From Escherichia phage Shashou, in the sequence record MK931440.1: DNA of 44,155 bases. One strand, written 5' to 3'. The first letter of the stretch is position 1. Each line of letters opens with the position of its first letter. The translations under genes and the position numbers were made by a program. Shown here piece after piece: positions 1,857 to 43,523 of the stretch. The notes under the pieces were generated by a model that was given only the letters and a program-made list of their open reading frames with translations, was not told the origin of the DNA and ran no database searches.

Positions 1857-3326
1857 ATGTTAACTATGAACGGTCAGAATCAGGGTGTTAAGACAAAACA
1901 CCGGGAATGGCTGCATCACTTTGATAAATGGCAGAAGGTGCGCCATGCGCTGGAAGGCGACCTTATCCGTTACCTGCGTAACGTCGGGAAGAACGAGCCT
2001 GACCCGACTTACGCCGCCCAACGCCAGGAGGAATACGAGAACGGCGCTATCTGCTACAACTTCACCAAGCGCACCCTGTCGGGTATGGTCGGCTCAGTTA
2101 TGAGAAAAGACCCTGAGCAGATTATTCCTCGTGAACTGGAGTACCTGTTACGCAATGCCGACGGTTCTGGTGTTGGCCTGTGGCAGCACGCGCAGGATAC
2201 GCTGATGGAGATTGACTCAGTAGGCCGTGGTGGTTTGCTGGTTGACGCCCCGGAAACAGCCGCAGCAACGGCAGCCGAACAGAACGCCGGATTATTAAAC
2301 CCGGTCATCGCATTCTACACCGCAGAGAACATCATCAACTGGCGACTCACTCGCGTAGGCTCGGTTAACCGCGTCACGATGGTAGTGCTGCGCGAGGTAT
2401 GGGAGTATTCAGAACCTGGTGCGGAGTTTGAAACCAAATTCGGCGAACAATACCGCGTTCTCGACTTGACTGATGGCCGCTACCGCCAGCGCATATACCG
2501 TTTCGATGCCGAAGGTGGTGCGCAGGGTGATGTAAAAGAAATCTTCCCGGAACTGGGCGAACAGTTGCGCGGAAAAATCCCATTCACGTTTATTGGTGCG
2601 AGTAATAACGACGCGACGGTTGATGACGCACCTTTGCTGCCGTTGGCAGAACTCAATATCGGACATTTCCGCAACAGCGCAGACAATGAGGAATCTAGCT
2701 TCGTCGTAGGTCAGCCTACCCTGTTTATCGCCCCAGGCGAGAATATGAGCATGGAGCAGTGGAAAGAGGCCAACCCTCACGGCGTGCGCATGGGTTCACG
2801 TTCAGGCCACAACATCGGCTACGGCGGCAACGCGTTTCTGGTTCAGGCCGGGGAGAATAACCTCGCCAAACAGAACATGCTGGACAAGGAGAATCAGGCC
2901 ATCCAGATCGGCGCGCAGCTTATCACGCCTACCCAGCAAATCACCGCTGAATCCGCCCGCCTGCAACGTGGTGCCGATACTTCCGTAATGGCGACTATCG
3001 CGCGTAACGTAAGCATGGCGTATACAGAGGCGCTGCGCTGGGTAGCTGCGATGCTGGGCCTGCGCGAAGGTGTGGAAATTGAGTTCAAGCTGAATATGGA
3101 GTTCTTCCTGCAACCGATGACTGCGCAAGACCGTGCGCAGTGGATGGCGGACATTAACGCCGGTTTACTTCCTGCAACTGCTTACTACGCCGCGTTGCGT
3201 AAGGCCGGGGTAACTGACTGGACTGACGAGGAGATTACAACGGCGATTGAGGACGCACCTGTGCCGTTAGGTGCTGTTACTCAGGTAGCTGGTGAGATTC
3301 CGCAGTCGGCGCAACAGCAGGAGTAA
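1857..3326 (+). CDS. portal protein
   Basis: 489-aa ORF directly after terminase with RBS aagagga; size and position typical of siphovirus portal. Confidence 0.75.
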   Translation: MLTMNGQNQGVKTKHREWLHHFDKWQKVRHALEGDLIRYLRNVGKNEPDPTYAAQRQEEYENGAICYNFTKRTLSGMVGSVMRKDPEQIIPRELEYLLRNADGSGVGLWQHAQDTLMEIDSVGRGGLLVDAPETAAATAAEQNAGLLNPVIAFYTAENIINWRLTRVGSVNRVTMVVLREVWEYSEPGAEFETKFGEQYRVLDLTDGRYRQRIYRFDAEGGAQGDVKEIFPELGEQLRGKIPFTFIGASNNDATVDDAPLLPLAELNIGHFRNSADNEESSFVVGQPTLFIAPGENMSMEQWKEANPHGVRMGSRSGHNIGYGGNAFLVQAGENNLAKQNMLDKENQAIQIGAQLITPTQQITAESARLQRGADTSVMATIARNVSMAYTEALRWVAAMLGLREGVEIEFKLNMEFFLQPMTAQDRAQWMADINAGLLPATAYYAALRKAGVTDWTDEEITTAIEDAPVPLGAVTQVAGEIPQSAQQQE

Positions 3327-3329
3327 AGG

Positions 3330-3356
3330 AAAAGGCCCTGTTATGGGGCCTTAGTT
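3330..3356. terminator. bidirectional hairpin terminator between portal and minus-strand moron
   Basis: aaggccc-loop-gggcctt flanked by A-run and T-run. Confidence 0.5.
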
Positions 3357-3878
3357 TTATTTAAATCGTGCGGGTATTAGCACCATAAATGCTGAGTTTG
3401 AAAATGATATTTTGCAACCTCTGGTTTGATCCTGGAAATCGAAACGAGCAATTACATTTTTGTATGCCTTAGAAATCTTGTACGCGTCAGCTAAATACTG
3501 CATAGCGAATCCTATACTATCAACCGCACCTGGCTCGATGCGCGCCACGCGCCTCCAGTCAGGAAAGTTTCCGTCTACAACATCTACCGGAAGTGTACAT
3601 ATAAGAGAACGACTATCGTCATAGAAGGAAACACTGCCGTTGGTATGGTTCACCTCCGCGTAGTTAAATTTAGATGGTTCTCTACCTTTGATGTCTATGA
3701 GAATCCCCTTCTCAACGTTTGTCTTCACATTGTCACAGAACAATCTACGACCATCCGTAGACACTATCAATCCTTCCGGGTCTATGTAAAAAGCGTTCAA
3801 ATAGTAGCGCGCATCATTTTTAGCCCTGCAGATTTTCGCCCCTACATACGCAGGGAAAGTAATAACGGTAGTAATCAT
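3357..3878 (-). CDS. hypothetical protein (AT-rich moron, opposite strand inside head module)
   Basis: Start taken at internal Met22 of track ORF 3357..3941, preceded by AGGAGG RBS; markedly lower GC than flanks; own promoter and flanking hairpins. Confidence 0.55.
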   Translation of the reverse strand: MITTVITFPAYVGAKICRAKNDARYYLNAFYIDPEGLIVSTDGRRLFCDNVKTNVEKGILIDIKGREPSKFNYAEVNHTNGSVSFYDDSRSLICTLPVDVVDGNFPDWRRVARIEPGAVDSIGFAMQYLADAYKISKAYKNVIARFDFQDQTRGCKISFSNSAFMVLIPARFK

Positions 3879-3905
3879 TTTATGCCTCCTGTTTAAGTTA
3901 ACTGA

Positions 3906-3934
3906 ATAGTACCCTATTATATTGGTGTCTGCAA
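3906..3934 (-). promoter_or_regulatory. promoter TTGCAG-N17-TACTAT (minus strand) with palindrome AATAG-tacc-CTATT
   Basis: Read on minus strand; palindrome at 3905..3918; drives moron 3357..3878. Confidence 0.45.
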
Positions 3935-3978: not shown

Positions 3979-5022
3979 ATGAGCTTACTAACATCATTAA
4001 TCAGCCACCAGATTTGGCTGCAACGCACCGCATCCGGTGAAGTGAAGGACCTCACACCATTCATTCAGGAGATGCGAGATGAAATCAAAAGGCAGGTGCT
4101 GTTGTTCGGCGACGACGGGCGGAGCACAGCGCGTCTGAATAAACTATTGCGCGACCTCGAGGAAGCACTTACCGGGCTAACCGGCGACTGGCAGACTAAG
4201 CTGACAGAAGACCTTAAGGAGCTTGCAGCGTATGAGGCTGAGTGGAATGTGAAGACACTCACGGCTAACGTTAATGCGGAATTTGTTACCCCGACCGCTG
4301 AACAGGTGTGGTCCGCCGCCGTGTTTCAACCACTGGCGCTAAGCGAAAAGCCCGTTGACTTCACGAAGCTTATGGAAGGCTGGGGTGAAACGGAAGTAGC
4401 TCGCCTCGTTACCGGCGTTAAGATGGGCTTTGTGCAGGGCCGGACAACACGACAGATTATCAAGAGCGTTGTTGGCAACGGTGGGCTATCGGATAAATCA
4501 GCCAACAACGCCGCCGTTGTAATCCGCACCGCTCTTTCACACGTATCTAACGAAGCCCGTAACGAGACTTATCGACAGAACAGTGACATCATCGAGAAAT
4601 ACGAGTGGGTATCCACGCTTGACAGTCGTACCAGCACAATCTGCAAGGCCAGAGACGGCATGACGTGGGGAATCGGTAAAGGCCCTATGCCCCCAGCCCA
4701 TCCGAATTGTCGAAGTACCACAGCACCTGTAATCAGTTCAGAGTTCTATTTCCTTGACGCGGGCGCAAAACGTGCGGCTAAGGGGGCAGATGGAGGTACA
4801 CAAGTTAGCGCGGATACCACTTATTATGAGTTTCTGAAACAGCAACCAGCGTGGTTTCAGGACCAGGCGTTAGGCCCGGTGCGCGGTAAGATTTTCCGCA
4901 ACAGCGGTATATCGCCGGAAGAGTTTCGCGTAATATCTGTAGATGGTTTCGGGAATCCGCTCACGCTTAAGCAGATGGCGGAACTCGATAAACGTGTTGC
5001 TGATTATCTGAAAGGGGAATAA
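3979..5022 (+). CDS. head morphogenesis protein (Mu F / SPP1 gp7-like)
   Basis: Start at Met20 of track ORF with RBS ggaggg; position after portal; size typical of minor capsid/morphogenesis protein. Confidence 0.65.
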   Translation: MSLLTSLISHQIWLQRTASGEVKDLTPFIQEMRDEIKRQVLLFGDDGRSTARLNKLLRDLEEALTGLTGDWQTKLTEDLKELAAYEAEWNVKTLTANVNAEFVTPTAEQVWSAAVFQPLALSEKPVDFTKLMEGWGETEVARLVTGVKMGFVQGRTTRQIIKSVVGNGGLSDKSANNAAVVIRTALSHVSNEARNETYRQNSDIIEKYEWVSTLDSRTSTICKARDGMTWGIGKGPMPPAHPNCRSTTAPVISSEFYFLDAGAKRAAKGADGGTQVSADTTYYEFLKQQPAWFQDQALGPVRGKIFRNSGISPEEFRVISVDGFGNPLTLKQMAELDKRVADYLKGE

Positions 5023-5483
5023 TGATGGGCTTTTTCAAAGTAACTGATGTACCTTCGCGCCGTGTTGTCCAGTACGCCCGCGTGTCAGGCTCCGGCGAGA
5101 ACGTGACCTACGTTGAAGATGAAAGTGTACTGGGTACACCTGTAGACGAGATGCCGTATGCAGATAAAACTGGTATCGCCATCACGGCGGCAGGTATGCT
5201 TTACGAGATTCCGTATCTGGAAGACGCAGGTGACGTGTACTTCTCCGTGCAACCGAAAGACGCGGAACTGGTAGACGGAAGCGCGGTAATCACGGTAGAA
5301 GTTAAGGCGTATAAAGCACCATATTCGCTGACCTGGTACAAAGACGGGAAGGAAGTCGTTAACGCACCAGAAGAAGCTTTGTCTCTGACGGTTAACGCTG
5401 CAGGCGAATACTTCGTTAAAGTTACTGATGCCGATGGTGTAGAGGCTGTGAGTAAAGCGGCGAAGGTTACTAAGCCGGAATAA
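5022..5483 (+). CDS. Ig-like domain protein (putative virion surface/decoration)
   Basis: C-terminal SLTWYKDGKEV...GEYFVKVTDADG resembles Ig-like fold signature; paralogous to 8219..8560. Confidence 0.55.
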   Translation: MMGFFKVTDVPSRRVVQYARVSGSGENVTYVEDESVLGTPVDEMPYADKTGIAITAAGMLYEIPYLEDAGDVYFSVQPKDAELVDGSAVITVEVKAYKAPYSLTWYKDGKEVVNAPEEALSLTVNAAGEYFVKVTDADGVEAVSKAAKVTKPE

Positions 5484-5486
5484 ACT

Positions 5487-5510
5487 AAAGCCCCGAAAGG
5501 GGCTTTTTAG
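5487..5510 (+). terminator. intrinsic terminator
   Basis: aagcccc-gaaa-ggggctt followed by TTTT. Confidence 0.65.
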
Positions 5511-5571
5511 CGCCTGTGATTATTCCAGTTATTCCACTCAATTGTAAATGTTGGAATAAACTATTCGAATA

Positions 5572-5600
5572 GTTGACTTTTCACTAAAAATGTGCTAAGC
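5572..5600 (+). promoter_or_regulatory. sigma70-like promoter TTGACT-N17-(TGc)TAAGCT upstream of spanin/scaffold/capsid genes
   Basis: -35 and extended -10 with 17-nt spacer; near-identical copy at 37502..37530. Confidence 0.5.
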
Positions 5601-5800
5601 TCCACCTGAGCTTGTGAAGTATGAACAAGCGACCGCGGCGCGGGCAGGTAACGGAGCGGGACGTAAGTCCTGAGTGTAGTTACGCTGACGCGTTCGGAAG
5701 GGCCATACTCTATTGCTTGTGTAAAAAGTAACTGGTTTACTGAGATTACGCCGTTTCTATGTTTAAATGATAAGGACTAGCGCCCAGCTTTAAGGCTGGG
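5601..5800 (+). ncRNA. candidate noncoding leader/small RNA (copy 1)
   Basis: No ORF; conserved 41-nt 5' element with hairpin gcttgt-N9-acaagc shared with 37531..37571; ends near hairpin cccagc-tttaag-gctggg about 5771..5793. Confidence 0.3.
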
Positions 5801-5825
5801 CTTTACTTATCGAGAAAGGAGAAAC

Positions 5826-6212
5826 ATGAATCCTAAAGCAACTGTCGTAGCTGGAGCATGTTTCATCCTCCTGACATACGGCTACGGAATCTACCAGTAT
5901 CGCAGCGGCTGGAACGAAGGCCGGGCGAATCTCGTTTCGCAGCAACAGCAGGAAGCACAGGCTGAGTTAGCGAAGAAAACACAACGGCAGCAGCAGGACG
6001 AATCTAAGGCCGCCGCTGCTGACAACGAAGGCAAGACGAAATCAGAGGTGATTACCCGTGAAGTCGTTAAGTACATTAAAACGCCTGGCCGCAGCGTGTG
6101 CACTTTCGACGATGCTCGCGTCCTGCTCAAGTCCCACGCCGTTGCCAACGCCAATTCCATCCCCGGATACGACGATGATGCAGCCGCCGTGCAAACTGGC
6201 ACCGCCAAGTAG
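5826..6212 (+). CDS. i-spanin (Rz-like)
   Basis: N-terminal TM segment (ATVVAGACFILLTYGYGIY) followed by Q/E/K-rich coiled-coil; overlapped by lipoprotein ORF in +1 frame. Confidence 0.6.
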   Translation: MNPKATVVAGACFILLTYGYGIYQYRSGWNEGRANLVSQQQQEAQAELAKKTQRQQQDESKAAAADNEGKTKSEVITREVVKYIKTPGRSVCTFDDARVLLKSHAVANANSIPGYDDDAAAVQTGTAK

Positions 6213-6321
6213 CGACGCTGACGAGGATTTAGCTATCGACGTTCAGAACGCCGAATGTGTACGGCAACTGAGACTGAAAGTGTTCATGTTGCAGGATTAC
6301 GTGAGGAATATTCTGGAATAG
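6058..6321 (+). CDS. o-spanin (Rz1-like lipoprotein)
   Basis: GTG start; signal peptide ending in lipobox LASC; proline-rich mature region; overlaps 3' end of Rz-like ORF in a different frame. Confidence 0.6.
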   Translation: MKSLSTLKRLAAACALSTMLASCSSPTPLPTPIPSPDTTMMQPPCKLAPPSSDADEDLAIDVQNAECVRQLRLKVFMLQDYVRNILE

Positions 6322-6403
6322 TTGCCTTGCATGTTGGAATAATTTATTCTTGACATGTAAATCCGGGTGGCCCGGGTTCCAACGTCCAGGGGACATACTG
6401 AAT

Positions 6404-7105
6404 ATGAATCGTTTTTTACGTTATCCGTTCCAGGAAGAAGCTGGGGCAGAAGATAAAGCCGGTGGCGGTAGCGCACCGAAAATGTTCACCGCTGAAGAAG
6501 TTCAGGCGCTGATTGAGAAAGAAGTTGCAGGGCTTAAGGCCAATCAGGAAGCATTACTGGCAGAGAAGAAAGAAGCCGCTCGTAAAGCAAGAGAGGCTGA
6601 AGAAGAACGGCAGCGCGCGCACCAGGAGGCGTTAAAGGCCGCTGGTAAGATGGACGAGTTCGAAAAGACGATTCGTAGCCAGTATGACCCGGTGTTAGCC
6701 GAGAAAGATGGCCGCATCTCCAAAATGGCAGAGCGCATCCTCGGTAGCGAACGTAAAGCGGTGTTAGGCTCTTTCGCGGGTGACTTCATTACCCCGGAAG
6801 CAGTAGACATTCTTGCTCCGTTCGTTAAGACTGAGTTTGATGGCGATGATGTGGTTACTAAGTTTGTTGGCGCAGATGGCAACGTAATCACAACTGACCC
6901 GGAACAGTTCCGCAAATACCTGCGTGAACACAAAGCGTTTTCGCATTTGATTAAAGCAAATGCAGCTTCCGGCGGCGGGGCTTCCGGCGGCAAAGGCGGC
7001 GGGGCCGCACCAGCGTTTAAAGACATGAACGAAGCGGAGCGTTTAGCTCTGTACAAATCGAACCCTGCCGAATTTGAACGGCAACTTAAAGCCCTGAGGA
7101 AATAA
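6404..7105 (+). CDS. scaffolding protein (putative)
   Basis: Highly charged, alanine/glutamate-rich helical protein immediately upstream of major capsid gene; start codon uncertain (track ORF opens at TTG 6350). Confidence 0.55.
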   Translation: MNRFLRYPFQEEAGAEDKAGGGSAPKMFTAEEVQALIEKEVAGLKANQEALLAEKKEAARKAREAEEERQRAHQEALKAAGKMDEFEKTIRSQYDPVLAEKDGRISKMAERILGSERKAVLGSFAGDFITPEAVDILAPFVKTEFDGDDVVTKFVGADGNVITTDPEQFRKYLREHKAFSHLIKANAASGGGASGGKGGGAAPAFKDMNEAERLALYKSNPAEFERQLKALRK

Positions 7106-7107
7106 TA

Positions 7108-8157
7108 ATGGCAATTACCACTATCGGCGATATCGTAACTGGCAACGTACCCGTCCTTCTGTCCTATATGACTGAGGACCCGGTAGAGAAAACTGCGTTC
7201 TTCCAGTCCGGCATCCTGGCCCCGACCCCGTACGCTGCTGAGATTGCTCGCGGTCCGTCCAACGTCGCTAATATTCCTTTCTGGAAAGCGATTGATACCT
7301 CTATCGAGCCGAACTACTCGAACGATGTATATCAGGACATCGCCACTCCACGCAACGTACAAACCGGTGAGATGATGGCACGCGTCGCTTATCTGAACGA
7401 AGGCTTCGGACAGGCAGACCTGACTGTTGAACTGACCAGCCAGAACCCGCTGCAATCTGTTGCCGCTCGTCTGGATAACTTCTGGCAGCGTCAGGCACAG
7501 CGCCGTCTGATTGCTACCGCTCTCGGCCTGTATAACGACAACGTAACGGCAACCGATGCTTACCACGAGCAGAACGACATGGTTATCGACGTGTCTGCGA
7601 CTCTGGGCTTCGATTCTGGCGCGTTCATTGACGCTACCCAAACCATGGGTGACGCGCTGATGGGTAATGGTGGTGAAGTGCTGGGGGCAATCGCGATGCA
7701 TAGCTTCGTGTATGCGCAGGCGCGTAAGCAACAGCTTATCGACTTCATCCGCGATGCCGACAACAACACCATGTTCGCCACCTACCAGGGCTACCGCGTG
7801 ATTGTTGACGACAGCATGACCGTAGTTGGTACTGGCTCTAGCCGTAAGTTCATCTCCATCATCTTCGGCAACGGCGCTATCGGTTATGGCGAAGGCAATC
7901 CGTCCAATCCGCTGGAATACGAGCGTGAAGCGTCCCGCGGTAACGGCGGTGGTGTTGAAACCCTGTGGACCCGTAAGACCTGGTTGCTGCATCCGCTGGG
8001 TTACAGCTTCACCAGCGCGGTAATCACCGGTAACGGTACTGAAACCGTAGCCCGCTCTGCTTCCTGGCAGGACCTGGCGAACGCCTCCAACTGGAACCGC
8101 GTTGTTGACCGTAAGCATGTGCCGATTGCCTTCCTGGTAACTGGTGTAAAGGCTTAA
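7108..8157 (+). CDS. major capsid protein
   Basis: 349-aa ORF after scaffold, followed by strong intrinsic terminator; typical position and size. Confidence 0.8.
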   Translation: MAITTIGDIVTGNVPVLLSYMTEDPVEKTAFFQSGILAPTPYAAEIARGPSNVANIPFWKAIDTSIEPNYSNDVYQDIATPRNVQTGEMMARVAYLNEGFGQADLTVELTSQNPLQSVAARLDNFWQRQAQRRLIATALGLYNDNVTATDAYHEQNDMVIDVSATLGFDSGAFIDATQTMGDALMGNGGEVLGAIAMHSFVYAQARKQQLIDFIRDADNNTMFATYQGYRVIVDDSMTVVGTGSSRKFISIIFGNGAIGYGEGNPSNPLEYEREASRGNGGGVETLWTRKTWLLHPLGYSFTSAVITGNGTETVARSASWQDLANASNWNRVVDRKHVPIAFLVTGVKA

Positions 8158-8173
8158 GGTTAAGTTATAATCG

Positions 8174-8197
8174 AGAGGGACTTCGGTCCCTCTTTTC
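8174..8197 (+). terminator. intrinsic terminator after major capsid gene
   Basis: gagggac-ttcg-gtccctc followed by TTTT. Confidence 0.7.
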
Positions 8198-11075: not shown

Positions 11076-12242
11076 ATGGCTACAACTCCTTTTAAGGGCG
11101 CGAATACCGCGCAATTCTATGTGGCGGAAACTACCCCGGGCGTGACACCGACTTCCCCGGTATGGTCGCCGTTGCGTAATACTGGCGGCGTTCCCGCGAT
11201 TACCCGCGACACTTTGACCTCCAACGAACTGGACGGCAGCCGCGAAACTACGTCAATTCGCACTGGTAACAAACAGGTTAGCGGTGAATACGCCATCGAG
11301 CTTAGCTCTAAAAGTCAGGATGACTGGCTGGCAGGTGCTTTAGGCTCTACGTGGCAATCAGGTGTATCCTTAACTGACCTGTCAATTACCGTCGCACCGG
11401 CAGGCAAGACGTTCACCCGTGCTGATGGTAGCTTTATTAAAGACGGCGTTGAAGTAGGCGACCTGATTGCGTTTACCAACTTAACGGGAGATAACGCAAA
11501 ACCGTTCATCGTCACTGCGGTAGAGGCACTGGTAGTGACCGGTGCGGGCATCCAGCACACTCTCACCACAGAGACCGCTACTACTGCTGCTAAGACCGGC
11601 GACAAACTGGAAACCGGTAGCCAGTGTAAGACGTTCTCTATTCTCACATGGTACAAAGGCCAGTGCGGCGGGACTGACGCGTACACGCTTACCAAAGGTG
11701 TAGAAGTTTCTGGTTTCACTGTTGAGCAGGCCGTTAACGCGATGGTAACGGGCAGCTTCCCGTTCATCGGGCGCAGCCAGGAGATTCTCACCGAGCTGCC
11801 GTCTGGTTCTGATTTCTCCTCTGTTACGTTTGGTGATGAGCCGTTCTCCTCAGTTGACGTTTCTGTGTTCGATGGCTCTACGCCGTTGCGTTGTGATAGC
11901 TTTACCATCACCAACGACAACAGCGCGTCCGCGCAGTTCGAACTCGGCAACACTAACGTTGCGTTTGTGGAACGTAGCCGCGCGGCCAACACCTTCTCCA
12001 TCTCCGGTAAGCTGTACGACATGGTGATGATTCAGAAGTTTATCAACGAACAGCAGGTAGAGATTAACTCTATTCTGGCGGGGGTAAACGGGGCTATGTC
12101 TTTCAGTCTGAAACGTGCAGAACTCACGGCGGTTACGCCAGAGATTGGTGGTCCTGAGTCAATCACTCAGAGCATAGAAGGACAGTCCACAGGCAATCAA
12201 TATCAATCTTCTATTGTAATACAGCGCATTAGCTACGCGTAA
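11076..12242 (+). CDS. major tail protein
   Basis: ATG at 11076 with RBS aagagg (track ORF opens at GTG 11070); T/S/G-rich 389-aa protein followed by strong bidirectional terminator. Confidence 0.7.
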   Translation: MATTPFKGANTAQFYVAETTPGVTPTSPVWSPLRNTGGVPAITRDTLTSNELDGSRETTSIRTGNKQVSGEYAIELSSKSQDDWLAGALGSTWQSGVSLTDLSITVAPAGKTFTRADGSFIKDGVEVGDLIAFTNLTGDNAKPFIVTAVEALVVTGAGIQHTLTTETATTAAKTGDKLETGSQCKTFSILTWYKGQCGGTDAYTLTKGVEVSGFTVEQAVNAMVTGSFPFIGRSQEILTELPSGSDFSSVTFGDEPFSSVDVSVFDGSTPLRCDSFTITNDNSASAQFELGNTNVAFVERSRAANTFSISGKLYDMVMIQKFINEQQVEINSILAGVNGAMSFSLKRAELTAVTPEIGGPESITQSIEGQSTGNQYQSSIVIQRISYA

Positions 12243-19789: not shown

Positions 19790-22335
19790 CATTACATTAC
19801 ACCCGTAACGAAGACGGTACTTTCGACCGCGAACGGCACAACGTACCGCCGATGGAATACGTCGTCGCTAACATCCCCGACGGGGTGCCTGTACGTATTT
19901 ACCGTGGCGAGATCGGCGAGGACACGGAAGTAACTGAAGATTTCGAAGCGCTGAAAGAAGACGATGTTTTCCATATTATCGAAGGCGCTGGTGGCGGTGG
20001 CGGTTTTCTGGGTAAACTCCTGGACCCTTTGGGTGTGCTTAAATTTGTTACCAAGTTGATTTCTCCGTCGCAGAAAACGCCTAAAACGAGTTTAGCGAAC
20101 CAGCAGGCTGAGTCCCCCAACAACAGCCTGACGGACCGAAGCAATAAACCCCGTCCATATGAACGGTCGTATGATATTTGCGGCAGAGTCCAGACTATCC
20201 CTAATGACCTCATGACTACCTATAAAATATTCGATGAATCTGGTCGCATTATTGAATACGGATACTACGATGCCGGTCGTGGGTATCTGGACATCAAGGC
20301 CGAAGATATTACCGACGGCGATACTAAGGTACAGGAGATTACGGGGACCTCTGTCGCGGTGTACGCGCCGTTTACATCCCCCAACAATACAAATACCCCG
20401 CAGCTTCTGGTGGGGGAACCTATCAATCAGAATCTTTATATAACTATCGCGTCTAATGAAGTAGATGGAGCCGTTCTTAAAGCCCAGAACGATATTCGGG
20501 TCAACCCAAGCGACACGGGCCGCGTGAGATATGACTCTGCTACAAAAATTGGATACCTGTATGACGACACGGGGGATTCTGGCTTCGCGGAAATATTATC
20601 TGTTGGTGACACCGCGTCGTTCAATAACTTTGACGTTCCGGACGTAACAAATACCAACGGCAACTTTCGTGTTCTTTATGTCGATAACTTCGAGCTGCGG
20701 GTCGACACCGGCGGCGCGTCTAATTGGGCTGCTTTAGGCTCAACCACCTATTCACTTTCCCAGAGAAGTGACACGTGGGTAGGCCCCGTGGATACGTATG
20801 AAAGAACATTAACCGACTGGACCACCTTAAACCGCCTGGAAGTTGAACGCGTAGTAGCCAACATCGCTGCCGCTAACGGTATGTATAAAGACAACGGCAG
20901 TAAATTGCGTACGTCGGTAACTATTGAACTCCAATACCAACTACTCGATGAAACCGGTGCCCCATACGGGAGTATCTATTCAAAACAGGCCGTTATATCT
21001 GGTCGGTCCGCCGACTACACCGGAGTTACTATTTACGCCGACTTGCCCATGAGGTCGAAAGTTAGGGTACGTGCCCGTCGTGTTACCAACCTGGACCTTG
21101 ATTTCGAGGGCACCGTGGTAGACGAGGTTTCCTATATCAACCTTTACGGTCAGGTCCGTGACACTACGCCACATTACGGCAATCGTACCACCGTACACTC
21201 GGCACGTAAGCAGACGCCGCGGGCCGCAGAGATTAAGCAACCACAGTTACGTATGGTCGCCACAGAGATGGTGTACAAATACCTCGGTAATGGTGTATTC
21301 GACACCGTAATGACACCGAATACTCAGGCCATTCAATCATTAATACGTCTCGCCCGTGACCCGGTAGTAGGTAATCTCAACCTAACAACATCCAATATGG
21401 ACAAGTTGTTAGCGACTCAAACCGAAATAGAAAACTATTTCGGTAACGTTGAGGCTGGGCAATTCTGCTACACTTTTGACGACTATAAAATGACCATGCA
21501 GGATATCATCAGCACAATAGCCGATGCTATTTTCTGCACTCCATATCGTAAAGGGCAAGACATATTACTGGATTTCGAGCGCCCGCGTATGGGGCCGGAA
21601 ATGGTATTCACACATCGAAGTAAGACAACAGCTTCGGAAAAGTGGACGCGCACATTCAACGACGCTCAGGTATACGATAGTCTTAAGTTCTCCTACATCG
21701 ACCCAGATACTAACGTAAAAGAGACCATCAGCATTCCCGCCGAGGGCGGTGTTAACACAGAAACGTATGACTCTAAAGGTATACGTAATTATCGTCAGGC
21801 GTACTGGGCGGCGTACCGTCGGTACCAGAAGAACCTGTTGAAGAAGGTGACGGTATCATTCACGGCGACAGAAGAAGGGGTTTTTGTGCTTCCAGGACGG
21901 GCAATAAGCGTAGTTAAAGGTTCACGCGTAGCACCCCAAGACGGTTATGTTATTGCGGTTAATGGCCTTACCCTGACGCTATCACAGCCTGTTACGTTTA
22001 CCCCAGGAGATGACCACTCCATCATCCTCAAGAAGCGAGACGGAGGAGTTCAAAGTGTTGCCGTTGTGCCGGGAAGCCACGACCGTGAAGTGGTTATGCT
22101 ATCTGCGCCACAGGAAGCAATCTACACGGGGAATAGTGCGCTAAAAACTGAGTTTTCATTCGGCAACGAAGCAAGGCATAATGCTCAGATGATTCTTGTT
22201 TCCACAGTTGACCCCGGAGATGACAGAACGGTCAAGATTACGGGTTACAACTATGACGACGGATTCTATAAATACGATGGCGTCGCGCCATACGGCAGCG
22301 GTTTCTCCGACGGATTCAGCAATGGTTTTAATTAA
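19780..22335 (+). CDS. tail tip / central fibre protein (gpJ-like) with gpI-like N-terminal region
   Basis: Long ORF; start uncertain (track opens at TTG 19705; TTG 19780 has GGAG RBS; first ATG 19852); N-terminal Gly-run GAGGGGGF. Confidence 0.6.
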   Translation: MALTLHYTRNEDGTFDRERHNVPPMEYVVANIPDGVPVRIYRGEIGEDTEVTEDFEALKEDDVFHIIEGAGGGGGFLGKLLDPLGVLKFVTKLISPSQKTPKTSLANQQAESPNNSLTDRSNKPRPYERSYDICGRVQTIPNDLMTTYKIFDESGRIIEYGYYDAGRGYLDIKAEDITDGDTKVQEITGTSVAVYAPFTSPNNTNTPQLLVGEPINQNLYITIASNEVDGAVLKAQNDIRVNPSDTGRVRYDSATKIGYLYDDTGDSGFAEILSVGDTASFNNFDVPDVTNTNGNFRVLYVDNFELRVDTGGASNWAALGSTTYSLSQRSDTWVGPVDTYERTLTDWTTLNRLEVERVVANIAAANGMYKDNGSKLRTSVTIELQYQLLDETGAPYGSIYSKQAVISGRSADYTGVTIYADLPMRSKVRVRARRVTNLDLDFEGTVVDEVSYINLYGQVRDTTPHYGNRTTVHSARKQTPRAAEIKQPQLRMVATEMVYKYLGNGVFDTVMTPNTQAIQSLIRLARDPVVGNLNLTTSNMDKLLATQTEIENYFGNVEAGQFCYTFDDYKMTMQDIISTIADAIFCTPYRKGQDILLDFERPRMGPEMVFTHRSKTTASEKWTRTFNDAQVYDSLKFSYIDPDTNVKETISIPAEGGVNTETYDSKGIRNYRQAYWAAYRRYQKNLLKKVTVSFTATEEGVFVLPGRAISVVKGSRVAPQDGYVIAVNGLTLTLSQPVTFTPGDDHSIILKKRDGGVQSVAVVPGSHDREVVMLSAPQEAIYTGNSALKTEFSFGNEARHNAQMILVSTVDPGDDRTVKITGYNYDDGFYKYDGVAPYGSGFSDGFSNGFN

Positions 22336-24750: not shown

Positions 24751-24888
24751 CTACTCTTCGGATAACTTCTCCAGTACAAACGCCAGTTGCGCATTAGCGG
24801 CGTCTCTCTGTTGCCGTAGTCGTAGAACCTCTTCTTCGAGTTCCTCGATACGTTTTTGCAATGCCGGAATTGGGGCTATGATGTTCAT
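24751..24888 (-). CDS. small coiled-coil protein (45 aa), hypothetical
   Basis: ATGA overlap with helicase stop; heptad-like IEELEEEVLRLRQQ; ends at terminator; not in ORF track. Confidence 0.4.
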   Translation of the reverse strand: MNIIAPIPALQKRIEELEEEVLRLRQQRDAANAQLAFVLEKLSEE

Positions 24889-27350
24889 TTCTTACCTCGT
24901 CTCTTCATGTAATTAAGCAATTCTTCCTGTACAGATTTCTTCTCGTCGGTGCGCGCGGCAACAACCTCATCCAGCGTGTCTTTAGCGACGATGTGATAGA
25001 GGAACACCGGGCGCTCGTGTCCAGCCTGTTTCTGACGAACAGGGCCTATGCGCTCGACAACCTGCAAATAGTGCTCGAGGTTCCATCCCTGACTTATAAA
25101 CGCCAGATGATGCCCTCCATCCTGTAAATTCAAACCATGGCCGGCTGACGCGGGATGAACACATAAGATTTCGATTTCACCACGGTTCCACGCTTCCATC
25201 TGCTTATTACCCTTAGCTCCTTTGGCAAACGCCTTAGCCTGCGGGAATCGCTTAAGTATGCGCTCCAGTTCGTGTTTAAACTGATAGGCCACCAGTAACG
25301 GCGCGCCCTGCAACTCCTCAACAATGGACTCCAGTGCGTCCAGTTTCGTGTCATGCACTTTCTCCCAGTCTTTCGTTGCTTCGCCATCTGGCCCTGATAC
25401 ATACACGGCACCGGACGCAATCTGGAGACACTTTGATGTCTTCGCTGCCGCGTTAGCGGCTTCAACTTCCCCGCTCTCGAGTTCCGCAAATAACTTCTCC
25501 TCCATATCGATGTACGCCTGACGCGCTTTCTTCGGCAGGTCTATTTCAACAGGAACGATAATCGGCGCTTCGCAACCGAACCACTCTGCAGCATCGATAG
25601 TGAGACTGATATCCTTCATCTTCTGATGAATCTCGGTATCCGCGCCCGGGCGAGCGTGATACTCACGCGCCATAGCCGATTTGCCTTTCTGTATCGAATT
25701 AAACCAGCGGTCGGTAAACGCCGTATACGAAGAACCAAGTCGCTCGCCTGCGTCTATAAACCAGTTCTGCCCCCACAAGTCTTTGAGGCCGTTTGGTGAC
25801 GGCGTACCGGTCAGGTTGATAAAACGCTTAACCTTACCAAACGCCACTTTACTAAGCGCCTTTGCTCGCTTGCTGCCACCAGAACGGCTGCGGAACGATT
25901 TAAGCTTCGTGCTCTCGTCGGCAACGATAACTGTGAAAGGCCAGTCGTCTTTGCCGTAGTAGTCAATCAGCCACTCGATAACTTCGTAGTTAGTGCACAC
26001 CACGTTAGCGTCGGACTCAAGCGCCGTGATGCGGCGCTTCTCCGAACCGGTCGCATCTACTACACGCAGGCACGGGAAACCCCAACGTGCCTGTTCCGCG
26101 GGCCACGTGCCAGACGCAACACGCAACGGGGCGAGGATTAACACGCGGTCGTCGTCATTAAGTTGCCCATTACGGAACAGGCGGTTGAGAACCCACAACG
26201 TTGAGCTTGTATTGTGCGTGACAGTGAAGTCCCCCAATAAAAACCTACTGTCACCGTCGATAGTGAAGCCGAAATAATCATCTACGCCGACCGGGGTTAT
26301 GGATTCTATACCAACGTTAAGCACGTTCTTATTAATATTACGCTTCGGTAAATTCTGGTGGCGTCCTCGCACGAAAGGTACCTCAGAAAAATCGCCAGAT
26401 ACCGACACACGGAAGTAGTCACCCCAAACATCAGTGTTTGCGCAACGCTTACGAGTTTTCTTCTTGTAAGCAGCAAAACCAAGAGAACGGCATAGATAGC
26501 AAAAATCATCAGCAAGTCGCTCGCTTACCGAAATCCAGTCAAAACCCGCTTTAGACAAATCGCAGTAACCATCACTATCCAGAAGCCCCGCCAGCAATTC
26601 TAACCGCTGTCGCCGGTCGCCGCATTTGTAACTATGCGGTATATGCTTATTGTTCAGGACACCCGCCGATTTCAGCGCGTGCGTAAACCCGTGCTTCTTA
26701 TGACCTGTGTTGCCGTAAGATATACTCCATGTAAGTCCTTCTTTTCGTATTTGCATCCCATTACGTGCTGCGTACGACTCAAGATAAGCCCTTATTTCCT
26801 TTTCGTTCTCTCCTGATGTTATGGCCCCCGACGACGAAGTACCGTCACCCAGCCATAACCCCATAAGGTACGGAGGCAATAAAGCCTCGTCCTGCTCTTT
26901 CCTTGTAAAATCGACAGGTACCCGCCAACCCTTAAGATACCCATTAGGTCCGGTTACATATTTCGGCAACTTAAGCCAGTCGCGGACGCTTATGTCGAAA
27001 ACGGTATTATCTGGCCATGAACCTTTTGCAATCCCTGTAGTAGTTCGCAGGGATAATATATGGCTTTCGTTGACCGTATACGACTCTCCTTTTCGCGGTT
27101 TAACCTCGTACATCATCTCCCGGCCTCTACCGAGAGACAGTACATTTCTAGGCGTTGAATCCGGCCCCATAAGCACGTCACCGACGATGACGTCTTCTAC
27201 TTTCTTGGTCGTACCGTCAAACATAATAACTTCCGTCCCGCGTTTCAGGCACTTGCCGCTGCCCATACTAGCCCAGATATTGCAACGTGGGTGCTGTAAC
27301 ATAAACGACGTCATTATTTTCTGGTATTCCCTGCGCCTAAATTTACTCAT
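24885..27350 (-). CDS. SF2 (SNF2-like) helicase interrupted by an intein
   Basis: Walker A split as MGSGK | intein | TSSTLW; DExx box VIVADEST; C-terminal helicase motifs incl QVVERIGPVRQ. Confidence 0.8.
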   Translation of the reverse strand: MSKFRRREYQKIMTSFMLQHPRCNIWASMGSGKCLKRGTEVIMFDGTTKKVEDVIVGDVLMGPDSTPRNVLSLGRGREMMYEVKPRKGESYTVNESHILSLRTTTGIAKGSWPDNTVFDISVRDWLKLPKYVTGPNGYLKGWRVPVDFTRKEQDEALLPPYLMGLWLGDGTSSSGAITSGENEKEIRAYLESYAARNGMQIRKEGLTWSISYGNTGHKKHGFTHALKSAGVLNNKHIPHSYKCGDRRQRLELLAGLLDSDGYCDLSKAGFDWISVSERLADDFCYLCRSLGFAAYKKKTRKRCANTDVWGDYFRVSVSGDFSEVPFVRGRHQNLPKRNINKNVLNVGIESITPVGVDDYFGFTIDGDSRFLLGDFTVTHNTSSTLWVLNRLFRNGQLNDDDRVLILAPLRVASGTWPAEQARWGFPCLRVVDATGSEKRRITALESDANVVCTNYEVIEWLIDYYGKDDWPFTVIVADESTKLKSFRSRSGGSKRAKALSKVAFGKVKRFINLTGTPSPNGLKDLWGQNWFIDAGERLGSSYTAFTDRWFNSIQKGKSAMAREYHARPGADTEIHQKMKDISLTIDAAEWFGCEAPIIVPVEIDLPKKARQAYIDMEEKLFAELESGEVEAANAAAKTSKCLQIASGAVYVSGPDGEATKDWEKVHDTKLDALESIVEELQGAPLLVAYQFKHELERILKRFPQAKAFAKGAKGNKQMEAWNRGEIEILCVHPASAGHGLNLQDGGHHLAFISQGWNLEHYLQVVERIGPVRQKQAGHERPVFLYHIVAKDTLDEVVAARTDEKKSVQEELLNYMKRRGKK
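26211..27251 (-). mobile_element. intein with LAGLIDADG homing endonuclease domain (about 347 aa)
   Basis: Begins with Cys after GSGK, ends THN followed by Thr; LAGLIDADG-type motifs LMGLWLGDG and LAGLLDSDG; excision restores GSGKT. Confidence 0.75.
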
Positions 27351-37501: not shown

Positions 37502-37530
37502 TTGACTTTTACTAAGAAATATGGTAAGCT
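37502..37530 (+). promoter_or_regulatory. sigma70-like promoter TTGACT-N17-(TGg)TAAGCT
   Basis: Paralog of promoter at 5572; followed by the same conserved leader. Confidence 0.5.
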
Positions 37531-37790
37531 CAGCCTGAGCTTGTGAAGTATGAACAAGCGACCGCGGCGCGCGGCAGGCGAAACGAGCACGTGTAGCGTG
37601 TGGAGTGAGGCTCGCTAGCGCGTTTGGGAGGCCCCAAGTCTATTGTAATTCCAGCCTAAGTAGCTAAGTTACTGATTTGCCGTAGGTTAGAACCGCCAGC
37701 TCACTCACTCACTCTTGGTGCCTTCGGCACCACGTTCGTTTCGTTTCGCTCGCTACCCCCTTAAACGAAAGAATCACAACGGCAACGTAA
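37531..37790 (+). ncRNA. candidate noncoding leader/small RNA (copy 2)
   Basis: No ORF of 60 aa or more; same 5' element; contains UUCG-loop hairpin ggtgcc-ttcg-gcacc and short tandem repeats. Confidence 0.3.
37699..37754 (+). repeat. short tandem repeats (ctcactcactcactc; cgtttcgtttcg) flanking a tetraloop hairpin
   Basis: Direct repeats visible in the noncoding region between divergent operons. Confidence 0.5.
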
Positions 37791-37861: not shown

Positions 37862-38053
37862 ATGTTTAAGAAGGGTCAGTTGGTTAAATACTCCGACGAT
37901 AAACACGGCATAATTGAATTAAAATCTGCTTTATTTCCAGGAGAGTACGTAGTTACCATGCAAAATGTGAGAGGAGTAAATTCACAAATATACGTAGCGG
38001 AGGAGAACTTAAAACTAATCGGCAACAATTTTAAATTCAAAGAGGCGAAGTGA
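37862..38053 (+). CDS. hypothetical protein
   Basis: ATG after RBS gaggag; AT-rich. Confidence 0.5.
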   Translation: MFKKGQLVKYSDDKHGIIELKSALFPGEYVVTMQNVRGVNSQIYVAEENLKLIGNNFKFKEAK

Positions 38054-38615: not shown

Positions 38616-38650
38616 TTACGCTGCTACACAGCAGCGTATCATTTTTCTCA
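38616..38650 (+). terminator. intrinsic terminator
   Basis: tacgctgct-acac-agcagcgta followed by tcatttttc. Confidence 0.6.
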
Positions 38651-38791: not shown

Positions 38792-38941
38792 ATGGTTACT
38801 TTGATGATTATGGAGTTCGAAAACAGCGCTGCAACTTACCGCGAGATGACTATGGCGCAGGCGTACCACCTGGCTAAACACAGCAACTTCTACAAGGCTC
38901 AAATCATTAATGAGTTTGGGGTAATTGACTATGAATTTTAA
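38792..38941 (+). CDS. small hypothetical protein (49 aa)
   Basis: RBS gagaggagagg downstream of promoter 38732..38760; not in ORF track. Confidence 0.4.
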   Translation: MVTLMIMEFENSAATYREMTMAQAYHLAKHSNFYKAQIINEFGVIDYEF

Positions 38942-39203
38942 CAGCTACACCGTGACCGTTGATTTTGAGGGGCTGGAGTTGCCCCTCCCTAACAACTACC
39001 GGTACATAACGCGCGATAGTAATGGGTTTATTCAGGGGTGGAAGAACAAACCGACGGATACTGAGTTCGGGATGTCAGGAGGAGAAGAGTTGCCGGTCAC
39101 TTTCGGGCATCAGAGTAGCAATGGAGAACTTAAAACGGTGATTCGTAAGTATCGTCGCCGCGATAACACCGGGCTTATCGCAATAACAGGCGCTGTTGAA
39201 TAA
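38931..39203 (+). CDS. hypothetical protein
   Basis: ATG at Met3 of track ORF. Confidence 0.45.
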   Translation: MNFNSYTVTVDFEGLELPLPNNYRYITRDSNGFIQGWKNKPTDTEFGMSGGEELPVTFGHQSSNGELKTVIRKYRRRDNTGLIAITGAVE

Positions 39204-39222
39204 GCGAGAGGAGAGACAGAAG

Positions 39223-39711
39223 ATGAGTAACAAAAACGAAGTATTCGAGTACCTGATTGACCAACTACGGCAGCAGGTAAATAGCAACCCGTACAAGCAA
39301 CAGTGCGAAGACCTGGCGCACGAGGTGTTGTCACTCAAGAATCAGTTACGTGATGCGTCAGAACATATTAAGGAGTTGCATAAGGCGTTGGCTGCAGCTA
39401 CGGGTGACGTAGGCGCTTATATAGCAGCAGAGCAATCTGGTTGCCGTAAGGAAGATACTCAGTACAACGCCTGGAGGCCGCATTATGGTGCACGACAACC
39501 TGTGCCGGATGGGACTATGGTATTTATCCGGTATCGCAACGGGGAGGAGCTGAAACACAGTGTAGCAGCAGAAAAGAGGTTGTGGATTTGGGATGGAACA
39601 TACGCAGACATAGTGGAATACAAGATTGACACACAGGAATGCGAGCACAATTGGTTATATAGTAAACACAAAAGTGGCTTCGTTTGCTTTAATTGTGGGG
39701 CGCGTAAGTAA
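39223..39711 (+). CDS. hypothetical protein with C-terminal Cys/His cluster
   Basis: Start at Met10 of track ORF with RBS gagaggag; C-terminal CEHNW...CFNC. Confidence 0.5.
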   Translation: MSNKNEVFEYLIDQLRQQVNSNPYKQQCEDLAHEVLSLKNQLRDASEHIKELHKALAAATGDVGAYIAAEQSGCRKEDTQYNAWRPHYGARQPVPDGTMVFIRYRNGEELKHSVAAEKRLWIWDGTYADIVEYKIDTQECEHNWLYSKHKSGFVCFNCGARK

Positions 39712-39911
39712 TGACCAGCGTCCTATTTATATGGGTACTGTACGCAGGCCAGTTACAACTAGCGGCAACAGAAACGTTTTACTCACTGGATGCGTGCCAG
39801 GCTGCGGCACGCAACGCAGAGAACGCGCACTTCCTGTTTCAGGATAAGCCGATTGATACTGAGGTGCGCGCGACATGTTCAACGAAACGATTAGCTAAGC
39901 AGGAGAAATAA
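39711..39911 (+). CDS. hypothetical protein with hydrophobic N-terminus
   Basis: Stop-start overlap; N-terminal VLFIWVLYAGQLQLAA. Confidence 0.45.
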   Translation: MTSVLFIWVLYAGQLQLAATETFYSLDACQAAARNAENAHFLFQDKPIDTEVRATCSTKRLAKQEK

Positions 39912-39912
39912 G

Positions 39913-40122
39913 ATGGTACAGAGATACGAGATAATAAGATGGGGTCTGCCGGAGATGGCTAAGTACCCATACGGTGACTACGTTGAGTATGACAGCTATA
40001 AGGAACTGGAGGCCCGACTGGAAGAAGTCAACGCTGAGTTACAGAAATACAAAGACCAGTTCCCGGATTACGTCGAGTGCGCGAACTGCGGGTCGGTTAC
40101 ACATGTGGAAGGGGTGGATTGA
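39913..40122 (+). CDS. hypothetical protein (MVQRY paralog 1)
   Basis: RBS agcaggag; begins MVQRYE, shared with the next gene. Confidence 0.5.
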   Translation: MVQRYEIIRWGLPEMAKYPYGDYVEYDSYKELEARLEEVNAELQKYKDQFPDYVECANCGSVTHVEGVD

Positions 40123-40376
40123 TGGTGCAGAGATACGACTTAACAGAATACTACGTGAGTGGTGCGGTAGATATAACGCCTGTCCCGGACTCGCATGAAG
40201 GGCGTTATGTAAGCTACGAAGACTACGCGCAACTCGAAGCTGAACTCATGAAAGTAAAAGCCGCAGCCCGTTGTCTTGTGCGAGAAGCAGGTAAGGTGTA
40301 TAGCGATTATAGTGACGTTATAGCACCTGAGTTTGTAGACCAGCAAACCATACACGAACTAGGTATTCTGTTATGA
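40122..40376 (+). CDS. hypothetical protein (MVQRY paralog 2)
   Basis: Start at Met16 of track ORF; begins MVQRYD. Confidence 0.5.
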   Translation: MVQRYDLTEYYVSGAVDITPVPDSHEGRYVSYEDYAQLEAELMKVKAAARCLVREAGKVYSDYSDVIAPEFVDQQTIHELGILL

Positions 40377-40666
40377 GCCTTGCAACTGACATCCTGAAAC
40401 GCAGCGGCCTTGCGCCGCTGTCGCCGAGAGCAAACACTCAGATATACAAGCGCCGCCGTAATACGCTGTACCCAGAGATACAGGAACGACGTAAAGCTAT
40501 CCGCGCCTGTGGATTCCAGAACGGGAAGGCCGTGAATCTCGGTGAGTTTAAAACACAAGAACGCGCCGCAATCGCTAATCGACTATTTAATTACTGGAAA
40601 TCGCTGGGGTACGATGATATTCCGACGAAACCCCAGAGACGACAATACATCTGGAGGCACAAATGA
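40373..40666 (+). CDS. hypothetical basic protein
   Basis: ATGA overlap with upstream gene. Confidence 0.5.
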   Translation: MSLATDILKRSGLAPLSPRANTQIYKRRRNTLYPEIQERRKAIRACGFQNGKAVNLGEFKTQERAAIANRLFNYWKSLGYDDIPTKPQRRQYIWRHK

Positions 40667-41100
40667 CTACTATCGCGTTTGACGGAAAGACGATGGCCTG
40701 TGACACCCGAGTAACCGGAGACCACATCTACAACACAGATACCAAGATATATGAGAACGAGTTTGTTGTTATCGGTGTAGCAGGCAATGCTGAGGCTGGT
40801 ATCCTTTTAGTGAAGGACGATAGTATTTTAGTACCTAAGCACTACGATTTTGATTTCTCTGCTTTGGTGTGGGTTAAAGACATCGAAACGTTGTGCAAAG
40901 TAGAATTCTATAAATCATGGGATTGTGCACTAAGTTCGGTTATCCCTGTTGCAGATGGTTTTGCCGCCGTCGGTTCCGGTGCACCTTATGCACTGGCGGC
41001 TATGTATTTAGGTAATACGGCAACACGTGCAATTACTATAGCAGAGCAATTCGACCCTAACACCGGCGGCAATATTATTACCAAACAACTATTAGGATAA
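40663..41100 (+). CDS. HslV-like Ntn-hydrolase (proteasome beta-subunit family) peptidase homolog
   Basis: Begins MTTIAFDG (Thr directly after Met as in HslV); VVIGVAGNAEAGILL and AAVGSGAPYALAAMYLG match HslV blocks VIAGFAGGTADAFTL and IAIGSGGPYAQAAARAL. Confidence 0.6.
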   Translation: MTTIAFDGKTMACDTRVTGDHIYNTDTKIYENEFVVIGVAGNAEAGILLVKDDSILVPKHYDFDFSALVWVKDIETLCKVEFYKSWDCALSSVIPVADGFAAVGSGAPYALAAMYLGNTATRAITIAEQFDPNTGGNIITKQLLG

Positions 41101-41159
41101 TTCCTAACCGTGCTATCCTCCAGTTACTGCATACTTAATACGCACCTGGAGGATTCATC

Positions 41160-42223: not shown

Positions 42224-42353
42224 TGGACGAATACGAAGGTGTTTAGTATTATGGTTAAGCCAAGTTTTTCGTATTTGCATACTAAGCCTTGGTAAACCTG
42301 AAGCAGCAGCCCAAGCGGTGGAGACTGCGTAGGGTTCAGAGGCTTATGACCGA

Positions 42354-42385
42354 AACCCGGACCGCGAATCCGGGTTTTATTTTAC
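42354..42385 (+). terminator. intrinsic terminator after lysis cassette (1 of 2)
   Basis: cccgg-accgcgaat-ccggg followed by TTTTATTTT. Confidence 0.6.
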
Positions 42386-43521: not shown

Positions 43522-43523
43522 GT

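Follow-up and report, generated by a model that had tools for sequence, protein, structure and literature searches.

Two overlapping genes lie at positions 5826–6321 of the window, by which we mean the whole 44,155-nt stretch of DNA from Escherichia phage Shashou (MK931440.1) that was analyzed. An earlier note, made from the letters alone, had read them as a two-component spanin pair situated between head morphogenesis and scaffold genes; its coordinates were exact, and both the identity and the neighborhood are borne out by PHROG matches, by the annotation of Escherichia phage Sciku and by the flanking genes (Table 1). In a whole-window alignment, the sequence is 99.9% identical to that of Sciku (MK931439.1; Kagunavirus, Guernseyvirinae) over 1–38848 and 39869–44155, and Sciku was also the megablast match for 5500–6400 (99.9% identity). 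A block of 1,020 bp at 38849–39868 is present in the window but absent from Sciku; it shares 93% identity with the related phages Snoke and Schulenburg. Over the spanin locus itself, DNA identity is ~95% to K1G and K1ind1-3, and 97.8% to the sister phage Schulenberg. The opening point of the Sciku record was placed ahead of terS, and headful packaging was predicted for this phage by PhageTerm (PMC6753286); hence the window is a complete genome that is circularly permuted and opened at terS.

Table 1. Coordinates of the spanin genes, their neighbors and the associated transcription signals in the window.
Feature	Position	Strand	Remarks
Hairpin terminator	3332–3352		between endolysin and spanins on the circular map
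Clamp gene	3357–3878	opposite	sole gene on the opposite strand between endolysin and spanins (circular map)
Head morphogenesis gene, Mu-F/SPP1 gp7-like	3979–5022		upstream of spanins; PF04233
Ig-like protein	5022–5483		upstream of spanins
Bidirectional terminator hairpin	5487–5508		closes the terminase-portal-head morphogenesis-Ig block
Operator-like repeats (inferred) TTATTCCA / TGGAATAA	5520–5572		abut the -35 hexamer; repeats within 5520–5559
Promoter P_A (predicted)	5573–5601	+	-35 TTGACT 5573–5578, 17-nt spacer, extended -10 TGcTAAGCT 5593–5601
Leader 5' domain, conserved structured RNA	5608–5719	+	P1 5610–5630; bulged P2 5633–5697; tail UUCGGAAGGGCC...CUAUUG
Terminator-like hairpin GCCCAGCUUUAAGGCUGGGC + UUUACUU	5782–5808 (hairpin 5782–5801)	+	18 nt before i-spanin ATG
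Shine-Dalgarno AAGGAG, i-spanin	5816–5821	+	from sequence; RBS annotated at 5817–5820
i-spanin (Rz-like)	5826–6212	+	128 aa, ATG start; N-terminal TMD, helical periplasmic domain (predicted), Cys92
Shine-Dalgarno GAGGT, o-spanin	6045–6049	+	within the i-spanin gene; GAGG 9 nt upstream of GTG
o-spanin (Rz1-like)	6058–6321	+	87-aa precursor, GTG start, +1 frame; conserved C-terminal helix ...ECVRQLRLKVFMLQDYVRNILE
Scaffold	6404–7105		downstream of spanins
Major capsid	7108–8157		downstream of spanins
Promoter P_B (predicted), paralogue of P_A	37502–37530	+	TTGACT-17-TGgTAAGCT; 91% identical copy
Leader copy B	37537–37649	+	behind P_B; R1 87.2 bits
Terminator-like hairpin, end of leader B	37716–37745 (hairpin 37716–37732)	+	
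Holin/antiholin pair	41160–41468 and 41488–41742	+	PHROG 2359 (E 1.8e-30); PHROG 2508 (E 1.2e-27); Sciku annotation
Endolysin, soluble lysozyme-type	41720–42223	+	PF00959 (E 8e-25); PHROG 7; without N-terminal hydrophobic segment

The i-spanin opens with a hydrophobic stretch (residues ~5–25; Kyte-Doolittle 17-residue maximum of 1.69), the N-terminal transmembrane segment called in the earlier note, and has no second one, a predicted topology of a single N-terminal transmembrane domain (TMD) with the remainder in the periplasm. This remainder is polar, rich in Gln, Ala and charged residues, and contains a single cysteine, Cys92. The protein matched PHROG 2536 'Rz-like spanin' (E 1.9e-54) and, more weakly, other 'Rz-like spanin' PHROGs (E 4e-5 to 6e-3); a Pfam search returned no match for either protein of the pair. 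An i-spanin homologue was found in 541 phage records. In the GenBank record of Sciku, the two products are annotated as 'i-spanin' (QEG06881.1) and o-spanin (QEG06882.1), with the K1G proteins ADA82248 and ADA82249 cited there. A single-sequence AF2 model placed helices at residues 3–84 and 94–107 of the i-spanin, with low confidence (overall pLDDT of 63, dropping below 55 past residue 60), hence a coiled coil is an expectation only. For the i-spanins of the Jersey family, two helices and a beta-containing linker have been predicted (Kongari et al., 2018; PMC6139136).

The o-spanin gene overlaps the i-spanin gene by 155 bp in the +1 frame, and its Shine-Dalgarno sequence is kept in relatives as (A/G/T)GAGG. 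Its product starts with the signal MKSLSTLKRLAAACALSTM, followed by the lipobox LASC with Cys23 and a Ser at +2, as judged by a pattern test. The n-region has the basic residues K2, K8 and R9, and the h-region (LAAACALSTM) is uncharged. The mature protein of 65 aa contains ten prolines in a Pro-rich linker, together with Cys45 and Cys67, so that the overlapping lipoprotein with a LASC lipobox and a proline-rich body was described correctly from the outset. It matched PHROG 5672 (E 4.7e-30) and PHROG 1267 (E 2.3e-18). The signal-peptidase-II check proposed in the earlier note was carried out as a pattern scan of the whole 44 kb in six frames, from every ATG, GTG and TTG start; the o-spanin fits the pattern, and 6058–6321 was the sole ORF with a ribosome-binding site (RBS) that the scan returned. 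Two other strict lipobox matches were rejected: 11315–11767 (minus strand) runs antisense to the tail tube gene with no RBS, and 21945–22031 encodes just 28 aa.

Whether the lipoprotein ORF is a real gene had been set beforehand as a test. With a GTG start, a position inside another gene and no Pfam match, 6058–6321 might be a chance overlapping frame that is not translated, leaving the membrane protein at 5826–6212 as the only real product. We compared 47 related IMG/VR loci, whose i-spanins are 63–95% identical. The +1 frame is open in all 47, and every one of them keeps the lipidated Cys, Cys45, Cys67 and the C-terminal helix (ECxRQLRLKVFxLQxYxRNILE). The lipobox varies between LASC, LSAC, LSGC and LNGC, the last of which was counted as a deviant spanin lipobox by Kongari et al. 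(2018; PMC6139136). In the i-spanin-only part, diversity at codon positions 1, 2 and 3 of the i-spanin frame was 0.138, 0.106 and 0.272; beyond the i-spanin stop (6213–6321), the corresponding values in the o-spanin frame were 0.095, 0.039 and 0.271. Because the diversity switches to the o-spanin frame past the i-spanin stop, the o-spanin ORF is under purifying selection as a protein, across 45 relatives. The mature domain also persists where the overlap is near zero: one relative (L080) has conserved the mature o-spanin domain despite an unrelated signal peptide and an overlap of just 14 bp between the genes, and the domain is likewise found in phages SO-1 and P400. Set against this conservation, the codon-position pattern and the PHROG match (E 5e-30), an untranslated chance frame is exceedingly improbable.

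Kongari et al. (2018; PMC6139136) grouped the spanins of K1G, K1H, K1ind1-3, SETP3, SE2, the Dhillonvirus HK578, EP23 and SO-1 into a 'Jersey' family of overlapped architecture, with a 155-bp overlap and conserved o-spanin cysteines Cys45 and Cys67. The pair in the window shares with this family homologous sequences, the 155-bp +1 overlap, both cysteines and the position between head morphogenesis and scaffold genes; we noted no material difference; the lipobox is LASC in the window, as against LNGC or LSGC in many Jerseyvirus members. From homology and architecture, we conclude with a probability of roughly 0.9 that 5826–6321 encodes a two-component spanin of overlapped architecture belonging to the Jersey/K1G family. 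We found no experiments on this family in the literature. The pair is already known, being annotated in GenBank and published, and there is nothing new in the spanins themselves; the locus does confirm that unlinked spanins can be found by automated and first-pass readers alike.

The tested prototype of the overlapped architecture is LysB/LysC of phage P2, and that of the embedded architecture is Rz/Rz1 of phage lambda. Both likewise consist of a type II inner-membrane protein and a +1-frame outer-membrane lipoprotein, with periplasmic cysteines and a proline-rich o-spanin. However, neither has detectable sequence similarity to the pair in the window, and both stand at the end of a holin-endolysin cassette, whereas the window pair is unlinked. 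A precedent for unlinked lysis genes is provided by phage T4, whose functional PseT.3/PseT.2 spanins are encoded adjacent to neither the holin (t) nor the endolysin (e) (PMC6139136). Unlike the window pair, the T4 spanins have a separated architecture, their sequences are unrelated, and the i-spanin lacks a cysteine.

By homology with such systems, and following the established spanin model, the N-terminal TMD of the i-spanin would anchor it in the inner membrane, with a largely helical rod extending into the periplasm. The o-spanin would be cleaved by signal peptidase II, lipidated on Cys23 and, since residue +2 is Ser and not Asp, sorted by Lol to the outer membrane. The C-termini of the two proteins would then bind each other. 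Cysteines are available for homotypic disulfides in both partners, and such bonds might form through Cys92 of the i-spanin and through Cys45 and Cys67 of the o-spanin, the latter two being conserved in relatives. The complexes are expected to be trapped in the peptidoglycan mesh until the holins (41160–41742) free the endolysin (41720–42223); once the wall is gone, they would fuse the inner and outer membranes and so complete lysis.

The claim that no spanin stands beside the holin and endolysin was confirmed. Among ORFs of at least 20 aa in 40900–43000 and in the six-frame lipobox scan, we found no further spanin close to the endolysin, nor any u-spanin or embedded lipoprotein there, and neither a lipobox nor a TMD-plus-lipoprotein pair occurs in 40900–43000. 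The 5826–6321 pair is the only spanin candidate in the genome. Holin, endolysin and spanins do not form a contiguous cassette, the endolysin ending at 42223 and the spanins beginning at 5826. A distance of about 35 kb, as first proposed, holds on the linear map. Given that the genome is circularly permuted, however, the endolysin stop lies 7,757 nt upstream of the spanin ATG on the same strand; the 35 kb are a linear-map artifact, the circular distance is ~7.8 kb, and linear-map distances are misleading in circularly permuted genomes generally. The Sciku annotation has two further terminators after the endolysin. The separation itself has been described before: the genome paper of Schulenberg, from the same laboratory, reported the holin/antiholin and endolysin to be genetically separate from the spanins (PMC6763661), and in the Golestan paper the spanins are ORF7 and ORF8 and the holins and endolysin are ORF66–68.

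The spanins of Jerseyvirus LSPA1 and of Dhillonvirus SO-1 likewise occupy the slot between a Mu-F/gp7-like head morphogenesis gene and the scaffold gene. This placement is ancestral and conserved, being shared by all of Guernseyvirinae and by Dhillonvirus. The SO-1 i-spanin has no leader, its start lying within the last part of the head morphogenesis gene. In Yersinia phage P400, the homologous spanin genes directly adjoin those for an endolysin and a holin-like protein, right after a head assembly gene and an HNH gene. The full cassette at this site in P400 suggests a head-module slot that formerly contained, or is able to contain, the entire lysis cassette, in which case the holin and endolysin of Guernseyvirinae would be its relocated or replaced part. 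The conserved position of the spanins is thus mildly informative on how lysis cassettes break up in evolution.

The distance from the holin and endolysin could also be accounted for if the membrane protein and the lipoprotein had a role other than lysis, such as superinfection exclusion or receptor blocking (compare the T5 Llp and Cor lipoproteins). The same slot does carry accessory genes in relatives: LSPA1 has an endonuclease VII gene there, and SO-1 has RusA and clamp-like genes. Nevertheless, the pair has the full spanin architecture, that is, a type II TMD protein, an overlapping +1-frame outer-membrane lipoprotein, periplasmic cysteines and a Pro-rich linker, and this phage of a Gram-negative host has no alternative spanin candidate. 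The contiguity of the homologous pair with endolysin and holin in P400, and the functional unlinked spanins of T4 (PMC6139136), likewise argue against a non-lysis role, which we consider very unlikely.

Upstream of the spanin pair, the bidirectional terminator hairpin has an equivalent in Jerseyvirus-type relatives, and the operator-like repeats that follow it are conserved in diverged Jerseyvirus-type loci. The element TTGGAATAA has six matches genome-wide against 9.7 expected, and so is not enriched; its clustering at 5520–5559 and 6334 is notable. The predicted promoter P_A is near-invariant across relatives, with a predicted transcription start at ~5604–5609. Its -10 hexamer, TAAGCT, matches the consensus at three of six positions, and because of this weak hexamer P_A was missed by a generic consensus scan. 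The earlier note had the spanins driven by a duplicated, late-type promoter at 5572. A promoter at 5573–5601 with a copy at 37502 is indeed predicted, but it does not abut the spanins: 225 nt separate it from the spanin ATG, with a conserved structured leader and a terminator-like hairpin between them. The term 'late-type' found no support; the second copy, P_B, is located in a divergent early control region.

The P_A and P_B regions align over 177 nt with 74% identity (E 4e-26; 91% over the first 78 nt), the duplication comprising the promoter element and the next ~135 nt, with copy B starting at 37502. P_B heads a rightward operon that includes the holin and endolysin genes. Between P_B and the holin genes, there are 3.6 kb with a terminator (38617–38638) and several weak promoter-like sites, and the holin and endolysin may have a promoter of their own. 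Internal terminators are found in both operons (8173–8194, 38617–38638 and others). From the sequence, transcription would start at the extended -10 promoter P_A and run through a ~215-nt leader and past the terminator-like hairpin ahead of the i-spanin ATG. With the leader and this hairpin between P_A and the ATG, expression of the spanins from P_A would need read-through of 5782–5801. With hairpin terminators at 3332–3352 and 5487–5508, and the two annotated in Sciku, falling between the endolysin and the spanins, it is plausible that the spanins and the holin/endolysin genes are separate transcription units. Since a paralogous promoter-leader heads both, however, the two sets of lysis genes are probably co-regulated by the same control element rather than independently. 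A literature search on transcription or leaders in Kagunavirus and Jerseyvirus returned nothing relevant.

The leader is the one item at this locus worth following up, and the only one that is possibly new; the spanins themselves are of little import. A covariance model of its 5' domain (R1) found exactly two copies in the window, the first with 129.9 bits at 5608–5719. The leader is 95–99% identical in 179 of 180 matching phage records, Salmonella phages included; in Salmonella phage S103 it is 98.8% identical, as against 74% for the i-spanin protein. Leaders of relatives differ by 1-nt indels, not by multiples of three. The 5'-end hairpin (P1) and the long bulged hairpin (P2) fold in all variants, and two motifs 3' of P2, UUCGGAAGG(G/C)CC and (C/A)UAUUG, are invariant. 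Of the cells in a raw MAFFT alignment (38 distinct sequences), 87% pair, compared with 30–39% in slid controls, and ten pairs change on both sides; in the model-fitted alignment, 91% pair against 30–38% in slid controls, and 12 of 28 pairs change on both sides. The fold is thus backed by covariation, and the leader is a conserved structured RNA, not a gene. A 36-aa ORF at 5621–5731, an annotated CDS, was considered as a leader or Arg-rich peptide and rejected, in view of the non-triplet indels and the absence of its AUG from the Jerseyvirus-type leader. The GenBank CDS CPT_Sciku_007 is probably not a gene.

The hairpin at 5782–5801 shows compensatory arm changes in relatives (CCCAGC, CCCCGC and CCCTGC). 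In this phage its U-tract is imperfect, and in Jerseyvirus-type relatives it is poor, hence the hairpin may terminate weakly or not at all. The spacing between leader and ATG is fixed: in relatives with the exact 21-nt core, the core lies at -213 to -217, mostly at -216.

Rfam 15 had no match to the whole window at gathering thresholds, and under permissive settings gave chance-level matches only (E >= 0.89) in 5480–6420. No leader was found in 5,426 E. coli genomes, and R1 detected no copy in SO-1, P400 or HK022. In a sample of IMG/VR, a loose two-anchor DNA pattern produced mostly chance matches, and filtering with R1 left Guernseyvirinae-sized contigs and one weak match (E 0.014). In the data searched, the leader RNA is confined to Guernseyvirinae.

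The leader would matter if it were regulatory; it may be an mRNA-stabilizing 5' UTR, a separate small RNA, or a binding site for a phage protein. It is possible, at clearly less than even odds, that the spanins do not form a separate P_A unit, and that the leader is instead an independent small RNA of ~200 nt ending at 5782–5801, or else a 5' UTR that stabilizes the late mRNA; if it were a small RNA, the spanins would be expressed mainly through read-through from upstream. P1 does lie within a few nt of the predicted 5' end, like stabilizing hairpins, both leader copies are closed by a terminator-like hairpin, and the spanins of SO-1 are leaderless, beginning within the last part of the head morphogenesis gene. 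Read-through from upstream would nevertheless have to pass the strong hairpin terminator at 5487–5508 ahead of P_A, and the constant spacing to the ATG (-213 to -217) also speaks against this reading. Moreover, the degree of conservation in the P2 internal loops and in the tail UUCGGAAGGGCC far exceeds what a generic stabilizer would need.

A more speculative role, which we regard as unlikely, is processive antitermination of a put-like kind: the leader would belong to a new class of elements that act in cis and independently of protein, and would couple expression of the two unlinked sets of lysis genes and of the late genes. To our knowledge, RNA-only antitermination is so far known essentially from put elements of the HK022 type. 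As with putL and putR of HK022, there are two paralogous structured RNAs per genome behind sigma-70 promoters, with two bulged hairpins, and the operons have internal terminators. However, R1 had no match at E <= 1 in the whole HK022 genome, and the 5' domain of the leader in the window is ~90–110 nt long, compared with ~70 nt for put. No covarying leader partner for the 5' arm of the 5782 hairpin, as in an anti-terminator pairing, was seen when the alignment was checked by eye. The small rightward ORFs included no Q-like or N-like antiterminator, all their PHROG matches being of 'unknown function'. In phage lambda, the PR'-6S-tR' leader precedes S, R and Rz/Rz1, and the leader described here resembles it in being ~200 nt long and in ending in a hairpin directly before lysis and head genes.

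The slot in the head module that holds the spanin genes predates the Guernseyvirinae, because lysis genes also adjoin a head gene in two phages that we compared, Yersinia phage vB_YenS_P400 and Sodalis phage SO-1. In P400, genes for an endolysin, a holin-like protein, an i-spanin and an overlapping o-spanin are contiguous (2606–3909) and directly follow the head assembly gene; the o-spanin gene (3670–3909), which overlaps the i-spanin gene and encodes the lipobox MSGC, is unannotated. In SO-1, the head morphogenesis gene and the spanins (3282–3753) are translationally adjacent.

In Shashou, we noted a structured leader RNA that is present in two copies per genome, and whose structure is backed by covariation. 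Conservation of the leader exceeds that of the flanking genes, and within the data searched the leader is confined to the Guernseyvirinae. It matched no Rfam family, and showed no similarity to the cis-acting antiterminator put RNAs of HK022. The leader RNA may serve as an antitermination, attenuation or stabilizing element.

Leader RNA copies and promoter-associated repeats
Feature	Coordinates	Promoter	Hairpin	Position
Structured leader RNA, copy A	5608–5719	5573–5601	5782–5801	
Structured leader RNA, copy B	37537–37649	37502–37530	37716–37732	
TTATTCCA / TGGAATAA repeats	5520–5572			adjoin -35 of leader promoter
ATGTTGGAATAAnnTATTC then TTGAC(A)	6305–6355			between o-spanin stop and scaffold gene

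The GenBank annotation of the near-identical phage Sciku places a 36-aa "hypothetical protein" (CPT_Sciku_007, QEG06880.1; 5621–5731) wholly within the structured leader. In relatives, this interval carries indels of lengths not divisible by three, and the start codon of the ORF is absent from the Jerseyvirus-type leader. CPT_Sciku_007 is probably not a gene. Further along the leader, ahead of the spanins, lies a mini-ORF, ATGTTTAAATGA (MFK*, 5758–5769); Jerseyvirus-type leaders have ATGATGTTTACA... at the corresponding place. The context of the mini-ORF, CTATGTTTAA, exactly matches the beginning of the first gene in the other operon (37862–37870), which suggests that the promoter-leader duplication at first took in the start of that gene.

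The TTATTCCA / TGGAATAA repeats are kept in diverged Jerseyvirus loci. Four of the six repeat matches genome-wide cluster in the two repeat-bearing intervals of the table, and the second ATGTTGGAATAAnnTATTC-TTGAC(A) site has no recognizable -10. Together, these repeats may constitute an operator for some phage regulator.

A 1,020-bp block (38849–39868) of Shashou is missing from the deposited Sciku record. It is 93% identical to sequence of phages Snoke and Schulenburg, and its small ORFs belong to PHROG families of unknown function. The discrepancy could reflect a strain difference, or an omission from the deposited Sciku record. We also noted a helicase with an intein (24885–27350, minus strand), known here from the Sciku annotation table alone; an intein-containing helicase is mentioned in the Sciku paper too (PMC6753286).
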